Positions 4,332 through 45,192 of a stretch of 64,000 nucleotides of DNA are shown piece after piece. The translations under genes and the position numbers were made by a program. The stretch lies in assembly GCA_024405755.1 (NCBI GenBank), contig JAKSOD010000001.1:85039-149038 (forward strand), given 5' to 3'. How positions within the stretch are numbered: the stretch's first letter is position 1; each line of letters starts with the position of its first letter. Origin of the DNA: Clostridia bacterium. Lineage in GTDB: Bacteria; Bacillota; Clostridia; Oscillospirales; CAG-272. Under the pieces are notes generated by a model that saw only the letters and a list, made by a program, of their open reading frames with translations, ran no database searches and was not told the DNA's origin.

Positions 4332-5162
4332 CTATCTTTCAATTATTGCAATTATCAATAAATGCAAAGGGTAGAACGCATAAAATGAATAACTGTAAAT
4401 CTTTCTCAGTATTTTGTTTTCAAGGCTGATGCCGCGTTTGCCATTAAAAGGCAAAATAAACAGCAGAGAGAAAGCGGCATAAATCTGTTCCGACTGCCAT
4501 TCTGATGGTTTGACAGGTGTTATTACGGTGTCTGAAATTAACGGAAAATAATCAGATAAACAAGCAACTGCAGAGAGAAAATAATATTTGAGAATGAATC
4601 TTGCAGCAAACGCGAGCGTGACGGCACAAATAAGGGAAAGAGATCTGATCCGTGCCGAAATATCTGACGTGAGCATTTCACTTTCGGCTGTCTTCCCGGC
4701 CGCGACGGATTCGGGAAAAGTGCAGAAATAAAAATACAGAACGATAAGTGCCACTCCCCATGCGCCGTAGTCAGTTGAAAACCGTTCAGCAATGAACATA
4801 CAGAATCCGGCAGGAAGAAGTGAGAGGAGAGAAAGAGGAAATGAATATCTGATCCTGTCGGCAAGAATTACGGCGAGAAGTCCGAGTGCCAACGTAAACA
4901 TCACGTTGTAACCTTCAACATGCAGTCTACCGTAAAAGCAGTAATCGTATACGTGTTCGCTGAGTATCCCGAATAACAGTATCCGGACAAGGTATTTGAA
5001 CGGATTGGAAGTCTTTTTGTAACCGAAAGCAATAAGATAGGCAAAAATCGGAAAAGATATTCTTCCGATCATACGAAGCGCGGGCAGAGAAGAGTTATGA
5101 TAACCTATATGATCGGCGAGCATTGTAAGGCACGCAGCGATTTTCAGTATCAGTGAACTCAT
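4332..5162 (-). CDS. TraX family membrane protein
   Basis: N-terminus LILKIAACLTMLADHIGY matches the TraX-family signature. The protein is polytopic and hydrophobic throughout. Confidence 0.7.
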   Translation of the reverse strand: MSSLILKIAACLTMLADHIGYHNSSLPALRMIGRISFPIFAYLIAFGYKKTSNPFKYLVRILLFGILSEHVYDYCFYGRLHVEGYNVMFTLALGLLAVILADRIRYSFPLSLLSLLPAGFCMFIAERFSTDYGAWGVALIVLYFYFCTFPESVAAGKTAESEMLTSDISARIRSLSLICAVTLAFAARFILKYYFLSAVACLSDYFPLISDTVITPVKPSEWQSEQIYAAFSLLFILPFNGKRGISLENKILRKIYSYSFYAFYPLHLLIIAIIER

Positions 5163-5737
5163 AGATCTTCCGCAAAAATGAGATTTCCGTCCGCGTCAAG
5201 GTCAAGACGCACAAGGGAGTGAAGATTGAGTCCCGCCTCGCGGAGTTTGCGTCCACCCGGTTGAAATGCTTTTTCAATGCAGATCCCGGCACCTACGACT
5301 TCCGCGCCTGCCTGATTCACTATGTCGATAAGACCGCGGAGTGCTTCACCGTCGGCAAGAAAGTCATCTATGATAAGGACCCTGTCGTCCGGAGAAATGT
5401 ATCTCTGATCCACTTTAACATCAAATACAGTACCTTTTGTAAACGAGCGGACACGTGAGCAGAAGACTTTTTCAGTGAGGTTACGCGACTGCGATTTCTT
5501 GGCGAAAACTACGTTCACACCGAAATACCTTGCGGCAATGCACGCAATTCCGATCCCGGATGCTTCGATTGTAAGTATAACCGTTGGTTTTTTATCACCG
5601 AAAAGACGATAGAATTCTTTTCCCATTTCATCAATAAGAGGTATGTCCATTCGGTGATTGAGGAAGCCGGATACTATGACGACTCCTCCGGGTTTAAGTT
5701 CAGCATCGTTAAGTATTCTTTGTTTTAACAGTTCCAT
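5159..5737 (-). CDS. xpt: Xanthine phosphoribosyltransferase
   Basis: MELLKQRILNDAELKPGGVVIVSGFLNHRMD resembles the Xpt N-terminus, and VLIIDDFLADGEA is the PRPP-binding loop. The start was moved to ATG 5737. The stop overlaps the traX start. Confidence 0.85.
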   Translation of the reverse strand: MELLKQRILNDAELKPGGVVIVSGFLNHRMDIPLIDEMGKEFYRLFGDKKPTVILTIEASGIGIACIAARYFGVNVVFAKKSQSRNLTEKVFCSRVRSFTKGTVFDVKVDQRYISPDDRVLIIDDFLADGEALRGLIDIVNQAGAEVVGAGICIEKAFQPGGRKLREAGLNLHSLVRLDLDADGNLIFAEDL

Positions 5738-5767
5738 TTTTATGACCATTCTTTCTTTTGAAATATA

Positions 5768-5936
5768 TATAGGGAACCTCTAAATATTCATCGCGGACGG
5801 GATCGCGGTGCTTTATTCCGTCATACTTCACAAAAATCCTTCGTGGTGGGGCAACAACACGTGCGGATTTTTGTTTCGTCTGACGAAAAAATCCCTCGCG
5901 CCCCATCTCGCACTGAACTTTTAGAGGTTCCCTATA
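5768..5936. repeat. Structured intergenic element, divergent copy C
   Basis: 17-bp perfect closing stem TATAGGGAACCTCTAAA / TTTAGAGGTTCCCTATA. It shares the core blocks TTCCGTCATACTTCACAAAA and TCGTCTGACGAAAAA, 44 nt apart, with the copies at 10072 and 44914. Confidence 0.7.
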
Positions 5937-5942
5937 AAAATA

Positions 5943-6329
5943 TTATTGCGGTTGATTATACTTTTCGATCTCCTCGTCAGGCGAACATCTTGAACACGGA
6001 CGTGTTTTTCCGTTTTTCTGTGCATCTTCCGATTTGCCGGAGAATATTTCTGATGAAGATGAGATAGACGGGCAATCGGAGAAATAATGCCAAACTTGTC
6101 CGCCGGAAGTCCAGAACACAACAAAATCTCCGTGACTGTCTGTCTGCGGCATAGTAAGGAGTGATTTTTCAAAAAAATGGTTTTCAATCATTGACTGCAT
6201 TTTTTCAGGTGTCAGAGTTTCTCCTCCGTAAAAATCCTTGACTGAATATCCGATTGCTGCGCATCCTGATATTTGGAAAACAAGAATTACTGAAAGAAGC
6301 AGTATCAATAGCGGTTTCAATCGATCCAT
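5943..6329 (-). CDS. Small lipoprotein with a Cys-containing C-terminal motif
   Basis: Start moved to MDRLKPLLILLLSVILVFQISGC (lipobox ISGC), 9 nt after the upstream stop. The C-terminus WHYFSDC...GKTRPCSRC resembles the (Y/W)H-x4-C...PC-x2-C tail seen on many secreted Firmicute proteins. No family name is assigned. Confidence 0.6.
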   Translation of the reverse strand: MDRLKPLLILLLSVILVFQISGCAAIGYSVKDFYGGETLTPEKMQSMIENHFFEKSLLTMPQTDSHGDFVVFWTSGGQVWHYFSDCPSISSSSEIFSGKSEDAQKNGKTRPCSRCSPDEEIEKYNQPQ

Positions 6330-6337
6330 ATGAACTT

Positions 6338-7240
6338 TCAACGGAAGAAGCGTTCCATCATATCGAGTTTTGCACCCGAATATTCGTATGCACCTTTGTA
6401 ATCGGATATTGCACTGCAGCATTTTTCAAGATCGGAGAAAACGAAGTACATTACGGGAGCGGGAAGAGAAACCGTGTCGCTGAGCATTTTTTTAAGAATC
6501 TGATGAGCCGCTGAAAAATCATTCTTTTCCATAAGGAGACGTGCTTTTATGTGTTTCGCTAATAGAATGTTGTTTTCATCCGTAGATTCGGAATAAGCCG
6601 CTGGGGATATCAGACTTTGAGTCTCAGCTTCCGTACCGCGGGAATTCATACTTATGAACACGGAGGAATAGCGGCAGAAAGGGTCTGAGAGTGTGTCGGG
6701 AGGAACGGAATAAGCAGCGTCGTCGGAATCAAATGAAGGGGAAACTTCGCGCATATAAGCAAGATATACAGTTCCTGTTTTTTTGATAAGCCTCAGTTGA
6801 TACGGATCGTCATTTTCAAGGCGATCACGGCATAAATCACTGAAAAGCGAACCGGCAAGCCGCAGATTACCTGAGTTAAATGCGTCTTTGGCAGAGTTGA
6901 AAAAACAGATTTTGCGAATATATTCAGTCTCGTCGTCATTTCCGCCGAGAGAATCGCACAGATCAAGACAGATCTCCCAATCTCCCGCTGCAAATGCGCT
7001 CCGGATATCAGGCATTCCGGTCATTTTTCGATACATGAATTCTTCTTTGTTATCCGCAAGAAGCAGTCCTGCAGGCACTCCGAGTCTTTCGGAAAGATAA
7101 AGCAGGGTAGGCAGAGAGGGAAGTGCACTGCCGTTTTCTATCCGGCTGAGCATATTCCGTGTTATTTCAGATCCCGCAAGTTCCGATTGAGTCATCATCT
7201 TTGCGTTTCTGAGCGTTTTTATCTTTTTTCCGATATCCAT
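6338..7240 (-). CDS. XRE-family HTH transcriptional regulator with a helical-repeat (TPR-like) C-terminal domain
   Basis: N-terminal HTH IKTLRNAKMMTQSELAGSEITRNMLSRIENGSALPSLPTLLYLSERLGV, followed by about 230 aa of helical repeat. Confidence 0.7.
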   Translation of the reverse strand: MDIGKKIKTLRNAKMMTQSELAGSEITRNMLSRIENGSALPSLPTLLYLSERLGVPAGLLLADNKEEFMYRKMTGMPDIRSAFAAGDWEICLDLCDSLGGNDDETEYIRKICFFNSAKDAFNSGNLRLAGSLFSDLCRDRLENDDPYQLRLIKKTGTVYLAYMREVSPSFDSDDAAYSVPPDTLSDPFCRYSSVFISMNSRGTEAETQSLISPAAYSESTDENNILLAKHIKARLLMEKNDFSAAHQILKKMLSDTVSLPAPVMYFVFSDLEKCCSAISDYKGAYEYSGAKLDMMERFFR

Positions 7241-10071: not shown

Positions 10072-10251
10072 TTAAGGCAACACCGCACAATTCACGGCTT
10101 ACGCCTTGACTGCGCATATGCTTGCATCTTTTCCGTCATACTTCACAAAATTTCGTTGAAATAGATTAACTATTCCTTCCTCATTTTGTATCGTCTGACG
10201 AAAAATCTGACGGCGCATCTGCACCGCCAGAATTGTGGGGTATTGCCTTAA
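10072..10251. repeat. Structured intergenic element, copy A (180 bp)
   Basis: 22-nt terminal inverted repeat TTAAGGCAACACCGCACAATTC / GAATTGTGGGGTATTGCCTTAA. By hand alignment 173/180 positions are identical to 44914-45093. Confidence 0.8.
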
Positions 10252-10287
10252 GTTGAAACCGGCACGCTTCTGCGTGCCGGTTTCAAC
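10252..10287. terminator. Hairpin between convergent genes (terminator candidate, no clear U-tract)
   Basis: 15-bp perfect stem GTTGAAACCGGCACG / CGTGCCGGTTTCAAC with a 6-nt loop. Confidence 0.5.
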
Positions 10288-10299
10288 TGTATAAAACAC

Positions 10300-44851: not shown

Positions 44852-44880
44852 ATTATATCACTTCCTTGCTTAGTTGTCAA
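44852..44880 (-). promoter_or_regulatory. Consensus sigma-A promoter for ylxM-ffh-rpsP
   Basis: Minus strand: TTGACA, 17 nt, TATAAT. Confidence 0.6.
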
Positions 44881-44913: not shown

Positions 44914-45093
44914 TTAAGACAACACCGCACAATTCACGGCTGACGCCTTGACTACGCATATGCTTGCATCTTTTCCGTCATACTTCACAAAATTTCGTTG
45001 AAATAGAGATACTATTCCTTCCTCATTTTGTATCGTCTGACGAAAAATCTGACGGCGCATCTGCACCGCCAGAATTGTGCGGTATTGCCTTAA
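44914..45093. repeat. Structured intergenic element, copy B (180 bp)
   Basis: 173/180 identical to copy A by hand alignment. The 22-nt closing stem has two plus-strand mismatches (A.C and C.A) that become G.U pairs on the minus strand. Confidence 0.8.
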
Positions 45094-45163: not shown

Positions 45164-45192
45164 TTGACACGATTCGGAAAAAATGATAAAAT
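45164..45192 (+). promoter_or_regulatory. Sigma-A type promoter candidate for the antiporter gene
   Basis: TTGACA, 17 nt, TAAAAT, with TG at the extended -10 position. Confidence 0.5.

Follow-up and report, generated by a model that had tools for sequence, protein, structure and literature searches.

The element upstream of xpt described here, copy C, is in our view an ordinary mobile repeat, a non-autonomous MITE of type II that belongs to the IS5 family, rather than a new regulatory RNA, and we estimate the probability of this reading at about 0.9. The whole stretch of DNA analysed, 64,000 nt in length, is referred to as the window; it contains two relatives of the element, copies A and B, and the preliminary description had correctly placed copy C as a divergent member of the repeat family at 10072 and 44914. 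We observed paired ends, target-site duplications, a match of the ends to the termini of insertion sequences (ISs), the family of the transposase encoded by these ISs, and an empty site. As far as sequence can tell, all the testable features of a MITE are present, that is, small size, lack of coding capacity, inverted repeats, a duplication of fixed length, copies that are dispersed and for one of which an empty site exists, and ends in common with a transposase-bearing IS. The features of the window are as follows, with MITE labels according to the preferred reading.

5772-5932, + strand: copy C, read as a 161-bp MITE with ends of the IS5-lineage type 'T5' (from sequence, repeat blocks and fold)
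5768-5771, no strand: target-site duplication TATA on the low-coordinate side of copy C (same 4-mer at both ends of the element)
5933-5936, no strand: target-site duplication TATA on the high-coordinate side of copy C
roughly 5772-5790 and 5914-5932: inverted repeats of copy C
5816-5835 and 5876-5890: blocks of the central module of copy C, common to copies A and B
5836-5875: variable apical hairpin of copy C
10076-10247, + strand: copy A, read as a 172-bp MITE with ends of the IS5-lineage type 'T1' (GGCAACACCGCACAATTC...)
10072-10075, no strand: target-site duplication TTAA, left of copy A
10248-10251, no strand: target-site duplication TTAA, right of copy A
44918-45089, + strand: copy B, read as a 172-bp MITE with T1 ends
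44914-44917, no strand: target-site duplication TTAA, left of copy B
45090-45093, no strand: target-site duplication TTAA, right of copy B
5159-5737, - strand: xpt (xanthine phosphoribosyltransferase, 192 aa), downstream of copy C and outside the element (ORF; Pfam Pribosyltran on the identical product)
5943-6422, - strand: putative lipoprotein gene, upstream of copy C and outside the element (ORF)

The three copies are 161-172 bp long, within the range of about 50-1000 bp expected of a MITE, and carry no transposase gene, any ORFs within them being spurious and overlapping. Together with its flanks, copy C reads TATA-GGGAACC...GGTTCCC-TATA, with termini 5'-GG...CC-3', while copies A and B read TTAA-GGCAAC...ATTGCC-TTAA and TTAA-GACAAC...ATTGCC-TTAA, respectively. 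The two blocks that the preliminary description had noticed in all three copies each occur exactly three times in the window, always on the + strand: TTCCGTCATACTTCACAAAA at 5816, 10131 and 44973, and TCGTCTGACGAAAAA at 5876, 10191 and 45033. For the former, a 20-mer, only 0.02 matches would be expected by chance in the 64-kb window with up to three mismatches permitted. The gap between TTCAC and TCGTCTGACG is indeed 44 nt in copies A, B and C (the pattern match being 67 nt in each), although it varies between 43 and 47 nt across the wider family.

The minimum-free-energy fold of copy C is one long hairpin, which contains the inner pairings predicted in the preliminary description; its energy is -73 kcal/mol for the + strand (z = -8.2 relative to shuffles) and about -89 kcal/mol for the - strand (z = -13.5). 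The perfect 17-bp outer helix TATAGGGAACCTCTAAA/TTTAGAGGTTCCCTATA, reported as the closing helix, exists as well and joins 5768-5784 with 5920-5936, but its outer 4 bp, TATA, are the palindromic target-site duplication and hence lie outside the element. Nor is this stem unrelated to that of copies A and B, as had been claimed, since GGnAACnnCnnAnAATTCA is common to the ends of copy C and of copies A and B at 13 of 19 positions. Promoter and terminator scans of copy C yielded nothing convincing, and in the terminator scan the central module did not resemble an intrinsic terminator. The right arm of copies A and B contains, on the minus strand only, an 11-bp GC-rich hairpin followed by TTTTT (10206-10231 and 45048-45073), which looks like an intrinsic terminator and which copy C lacks.

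To describe the family, we scanned one genome per species with the pattern CGTCATACTTCAC-N40-50-CGTCTGACG, requiring an exact core. The scan yielded 87 stretches from about 20 MAGs of gut and rumen Clostridia (Faecousia, Eubacterium CAG:180, Acutalibacteraceae, Ruminiclostridium, Ruminococcus and Lachnospiraceae) and one Selenomonadaceae MAG, the latter with more than 20 copies. A further 35 copies were found in the same loci by nhmmer, giving about 125 copies in genomic loci; the nearest genomic relative of copy C is at L069. The copies are 157-183 bp long, mostly 161-162 or 172 bp, and in all subfamilies they are bounded by GG...CC inverted repeats of approximately 17-25 bp. No match to the repeat was obtained in the phage collection, and in the plasmid collection only unannotated Subdoligranulum replicons matched, with copies that had not been selected for the core. 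A literature search yielded no specific description of such a MITE in Clostridia or Oscillospiraceae. The repeat is thus a family for which we found no prior description, but of a known kind, type II MITEs of the IS5 family.

The target-site duplications were counted in the 73 copies whose ends match well, with complementarity at no fewer than 10 of the 14 terminal positions. In 56 of these the flanking 4 bp are perfect direct duplications, and in 10 more they match at three of four positions. Among the 56, TTAA is the most frequent 4-mer (34), followed by TTTA (5), TAAA, ATAA and TATA (4 each), TTAT and TTGA (2 each) and GAAA (1). As non-palindromic 4-mers are repeated directly, the flanks represent duplicated target sequence rather than a continuation of the inverted repeat. 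A duplication of TA, of the IS630 type, was considered and ruled out, the non-palindromic 4-mers being repeated in full. In two cases (L022, L080) tandem copies have a single common TTAA.

All copies are intergenic, and their orientation relative to the neighbouring genes is near random: 28 and 16 copies lie between co-directional genes in the two orientations, 19 between convergent and 14 between divergent ones, the 28 versus 16 co-directional copies showing no significant bias. The same holds for the orientation relative to the local GC skew (57 versus 40, p = 0.10). There are also internal-deletion derivatives of 56-113 bp without the central module, several of them with matching or near-matching 4-bp flanks, which argues that insertion does not strictly depend on the module.

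Two side observations concern the structure and distribution of the family. Variants of about 284 bp carry a GC-rich insert in the apical loop, and in one case a MITE is nested in another (examples of these forms are among L152 455-738, L161 1498-1782, L020 4607-4805 and L301 149-371). In the Selenomonadaceae (Negativicutes) MAG, CAVBUH01, the copies (e.g. at L003, L004, L011, L013, L014 and L080) number more than 30 and belong to at least two subfamilies. This suggests that either the element or its transposase was transferred horizontally, or else that there is a binning artefact.

The preliminary description had regarded the ends of these copies as the opposite of transposase-recognised MITE ends. 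In fact both end types are the inverted repeats of IS5-family ISs: GGCAACACCGCACAATT, the A/B type, constitutes the termini of full-length ISs of 1.13-1.17 kb, and GGGNACCTCTAAAAATTCA, the copy C type, those of full-length ISs of 1.25-1.35 kb.

For the A/B type, viral contigs were scanned for GGCAAYACCGCRCAATT, which yielded 105 loci, mostly end pairs of MITE size. Inverted GGCAACACCGCA(C/T)AAT ends are separated by 1126 bp in L133 and L186 and by 1166 bp in L147, and in all three they enclose a transposase with the Pfam domains DDE_Tnp_1 and DUF772. The domains were matched in two T1-type transposases, the Pfam scan covering the T1 type only; the T1-type transposases score 236-298 bits on NCBIfam NF033581, 'IS5 family transposase', at a cut-off of 140. 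Matching duplications are absent at two T1 IS copies. A scan of the viral contigs seeded with the T1 transposase protein retrieved near-identical copies only.

For the copy C type, metagenome contigs were scanned for GGKNACCTCTAAAWATTCA, which yielded at least 120 loci. Among the matches listed, five loci (L259, L238, L269, L253 and L312) have inverted GGGNACCTCTAAAAATTCA ends at a distance of 1253-1345 bp from each other. The ISs with T5 ends encode proteins of 337-353 aa that score 254-287 bits on NF033581 (cut-off 140), and perfect 4-bp duplications flank two of them (ATAA/ATAA in L238, ATAT/ATAT in L253). The same GGGNACCTCTAAAAATTCA ends also bound, among the matches listed, dozens of unrelated MITE bodies of 73-280 bp (L204-L323), the most frequent families having 110 bp and 141 bp, each with 4-bp AT-rich duplications. 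As so many GGGNACCTCTAAAAATTCA-bounded bodies have 4-bp duplications, the T5 IS5 lineage appears to be a prolific producer of MITEs.

When the terminal 30 nt are aligned, the ends of copy C group with the T5 ISs (L253, L238, L269, L259), its left end agreeing with an L253 terminus at 18 of 19 positions, and the ends of copies A and B group with the T1 ISs, with 17 nt identical to the termini of L133, L186 and L147. Beyond these terminal 17-23 nt, the ISs and the MITEs have nothing in common. The duplications are always 4 bp long, with TTAA and TTAG dominating and other AT-rich 4-mers also present. Thus, the termini are conserved within subfamilies, are flanked by duplications in the proportion given above, and are tied to transposase-bearing IS5 elements, an outcome that the preliminary description had itself named as refuting its reading. 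The full-length ISs with matching ends come from viral and environmental contigs; neither the window nor the 8-kb loci surrounding the genomic copies yielded an IS5 element of either end type, and a search of these loci for solo ends and multicopy ORFs gave none. Ends of the IS6/IS26 kind were rejected, as that family makes duplications of 8 bp.

The following scheme would account for these observations. An IS5-family DDE transposase, acting in trans, would recognise the GG...CC terminal inverted repeats, make a staggered 4-bp cut at AT-rich sites, preferably TTAA, and repair of the gaps would leave the 4-bp duplication; mobilisation in trans would be by transposases such as the T1 and T5 ones found here. 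Copies A and B belong to a sister subfamily whose ends fit a second IS5 lineage, the T1 and T5 transposases being 32% identical in protein sequence. The closing stem of copy C would be complementary because both ends must fit one transposase and so change together, and would differ from that of copies A and B because it fits a different lineage.

The preliminary description had taken the conserved core and the complementary ends for the mark of a selected structure. We analysed covariation in 49 non-redundant copies, using the better-folding strand, with the structure derived from per-sequence folds and with explicit counts of pairs; RNAalifold on a plain MAFFT alignment retained 6 pairs only, the arms being out of register between subfamilies. 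Standard pairs occupy 86.5% of the cells, compared to 74.3% with shuffled partners and 35-45% with the partners slid by 1-3 columns, although related sequences may exceed the shuffle control even without selection. Changes on both sides were seen in 49 of 70 pairs, some of them well inside the inverted repeats, and for the internal helices in 8 of 9 pairs of helix 2 and in 10 of 23 pairs of helix 5. Judging by these counts, the hairpin is kept by compensatory substitutions over its whole length, and for the internal helices the evidence is suggestive. The core itself is not universal, so this part of the earlier interpretation does not hold: copies of Subdoligranulum variabile have the A/B ends and arms but the core CCGGCA-ACTGTC-ACAAAAAT...TTTTTGT-TTAACC-TGCC, and 172-bp copies from viral contigs have the core CGGCA-TCTGCGT-TGCCAAAATGC...GCGCTTTTGGC-TTAGCAG-CTGCCG. 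Here CGTCA/TGACG is replaced by CGGCA/TGCC, and ACAAAA/TTTTGT by CCAAAA/TTTTGG, in a compensated manner, so that the architecture of stem, symmetric internal loop, A/T-rich stem and variable apical hairpin is retained. Another subfamily has different loop sequences, and the body of copy C is absent from all the loci with C-type ends among the matches listed (at least 120).

The two strands do not fold equally well. The reverse complement of the orientation used here folds better in 77 of 82 copies, the mean energies being -77.7 and -61.8 kcal/mol, and the better-folding strand has about twice as many G-U cells. Part of this asymmetry simply goes back to the parent ISs, whose left and right ends differ by C/T.

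The ends and the core have separate histories, and in the genome of the window one core is found under two end types. This may reflect a constraint on the module or an exchange of modules between co-resident MITEs. A simple model of selfish DNA does not predict that the internal helices change in a compensatory manner, that one strand folds better in 77 of 82 copies, or that the central module is identical under two end types. We considered an extension of the MITE explanation, an addition to it and not a replacement, in which the body carries a selected single-stranded (RNA or DNA) module, CGTCA / 6x6 loop / ACAAAA...TTTTGT / loop / TGACG, that persisted through an exchange of ends between two IS5 lineages. 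Its possible roles would be those of a transposition enhancer, a site for a host factor, or an RNA insulator, stabiliser or processing site that makes insertions into operons tolerable. It would explain why the module is identical under T1 and T5 ends in one genome while the arms and the apex differ, and it agrees with the both-side changes in helices 2 and 5, with the stem-loop-stem preserved in other sequence in the Subdoligranulum and viral copies, with the advantage of approximately 16 kcal/mol of one strand, and with the terminator-like hairpin and T-run of copies A and B, which is on the better-folding strand. Nevertheless, we consider this extension unlikely. The conservation of the core in the main set is partly an artefact of ascertainment, as the scan demanded an exact core, and the copies found by their ends carry other cores; the loop sequences vary between subfamilies; orientation has no significant bias relative to either transcription or GC skew; some of the strand asymmetry is inherited from the differences between the left and right IS ends; relatedness alone may beat the shuffle controls; and module-less deletion derivatives with duplications exist. 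If the extension is true, a selected module has moved between transposase specificities.

Far less probable is the alternative favoured in the preliminary description, that copy C, as RNA or ssDNA, is a structure selected to act in cis in the 5' leader of xpt, where it replaces a guanine riboswitch, with copies A and B as paralogous regulatory elements. It is true that the element nearly fills the gap, as had been noted: it occupies 169 of the 205 nt that separate the xpt ATG (5737) from the lipoprotein stop (5943). It is also true that the fold is strongly stable, that the hairpin covaries, that at copy C the better-folding strand is the sense strand of xpt, and that a purine riboswitch is indeed lacking. 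A search of the 64-kb window on both strands with Rfam 15 gave no family at the gathering score, and at E<=10 the region 5650-6050 gave noise matches to eukaryotic lncRNA models only; the purine riboswitch RF00167, specifically, had no match at the gathering score in the window and none at E<=10 in 5650-6050. That no known RNA family is matched also counts in favour of the MITE reading.

The allele without the element speaks against the leader reading. The 192-aa Xpt protein is encoded on four other public contigs, and one of these, the Logan contig L325 (run SRR18398414), agrees with the window at 1262 of 1262 nt downstream of copy C and lacks exactly the 161-bp element and one TATA. In this empty allele only 40 nt separate the stop codon of the lipoprotein gene from the xpt ATG. 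Hence neither a riboswitch nor a separate leader would fit into the ancestral arrangement, and the lipoprotein gene and xpt probably form one transcription unit and are co-transcribed. Thus, an element that is missing from an allele with identical xpt, whose relatives lie in convergent, divergent and co-directional gaps beside unrelated genes in either orientation, and whose target-site duplications and IS5-terminus match indicate a transposon, can hardly be a leader replacing a riboswitch. According to the MITE reading, copy C was inserted into the 40-nt spacer between the two genes, and a hairpin of approximately -89 kcal/mol may now be part of the sense transcript, with a possible effect on xpt.

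Around the insertion point, 3 of 9 nt differ between L325 (1-70) and the window (5737-5960), the junction being TTTTTATAT in the window with the element removed and ATTTCATAA in L325. These substitutions could be a footprint of excision or insertion, or could reflect a mutable AT tract. The Logan contigs L324 and L326 start inside the end of the copy C element, and when empty sites were sought at copies A and B, the contigs with the adjacent genes stopped at the repeat. Overall, the short-read contigs L324, L326, L327 and L330 break off in or next to each of the three copies, as is expected of a repeat, and the family thus fragments assemblies. Proteins identical to those of the window are also present in the NCBI assembly GCA_024500545.1.

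Least credible of all is a REP/REPIN-like or IS200/IS605-type palindrome moved as ssDNA by an HUH (Y1) transposase, which would suit a wholly palindromic element with strand-asymmetric folding, but REP/REPIN and IS200/IS605 elements insert by a fixed short motif without target duplication, while here variable 4-mers are duplicated, the ends equal the termini of IS5 DDE transposons, and orientation relative to GC skew is not significantly biased.

Type II MITEs related to IS5 are known from Porphyromonas gingivalis (BrickBuilt, MITE293 and MITE700, related to ISPg1/3/4/9) and Neisseria meningitidis (ATR, related to ISNme1) (PMC4596501). Similarly to these, the present copies are short, intergenic, multicopy and non-coding, with predicted long stem-loops and with ends that match, fully or almost so, the ends of full-length IS5-family elements, the interior being unrelated (PMC4596501). 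They differ in their hosts, gut Oscillospirales-type Clostridia and one Selenomonadaceae MAG, and in the sequences of the ends and of the body; the duplications are regular 4-bp ones, whereas irregular duplications have been reported for BrickBuilt (PMC4596501); and here one body occurs under the end types of two IS5 lineages. IS5 makes 4-bp duplications at YTAR targets, which TTAA fits (PMC5009759), and the present family shares with the IS5 group the 4-bp duplication at YTAR-type sites, including TTAA and TTAG (PMC5009759). As in IS5 of Escherichia coli and the IS5 group, the partner transposase is a DDE enzyme with DUF772 and DDE_Tnp_1 (T1 type), and the ends start with GG. Unlike IS5, the copies in the window are non-coding, the partner ISs are small (1.13-1.35 kb), and the targets are broader and more AT-rich (TTTA, TAAA, ATAA, TATA) than the strict YTAR.

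The Correia elements of Neisseria, RUP of Streptococcus pneumoniae and ERIC/IRU of enterobacteria are imperfect palindromes of 100-170 bp inserted in intergenic regions and operons; their transcripts fold into long hairpins and can alter the expression of neighbouring genes, their target duplication is TA, and the transposases associated with them are of the IS630 type or unknown. Copies A, B and C are likewise palindromic intergenic hairpins, but have no sequence similarity to these elements and a 4-bp, not a TA, duplication.

For annotation, the repeat should be labelled as an IS5-type MITE and not as a candidate riboswitch or sRNA, and xpt has no dedicated leader because it lies 40 nt behind the preceding gene. 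The family opens no new class of system. It is abundant in uncultured gut Clostridia, where it is of practical use in marking contig ends and variation at the strain level, and one hairpin body with the ends of two IS5 lineages offers a case for studying switching or co-evolution between MITEs and transposases.

As for the other two copies in the window, copy A is situated 13 nt past the stop codon of a 473-aa gene, with convergent genes on either side, and is followed by a separate GC-rich palindrome at 10254-10288. Copy B has the divergent ylxM-ffh operon on one side and a cation antiporter gene on the other. It is flanked by two near-consensus divergent promoters of the sigma-70 type, at 44852-44880 (- strand) and 45164-45192 (+ strand), with the sequences TTGACA-17-TATAAT with an upstream TG and TTGACA-17-TAAAAT, which presumably drive ylxM-ffh and the antiporter gene.
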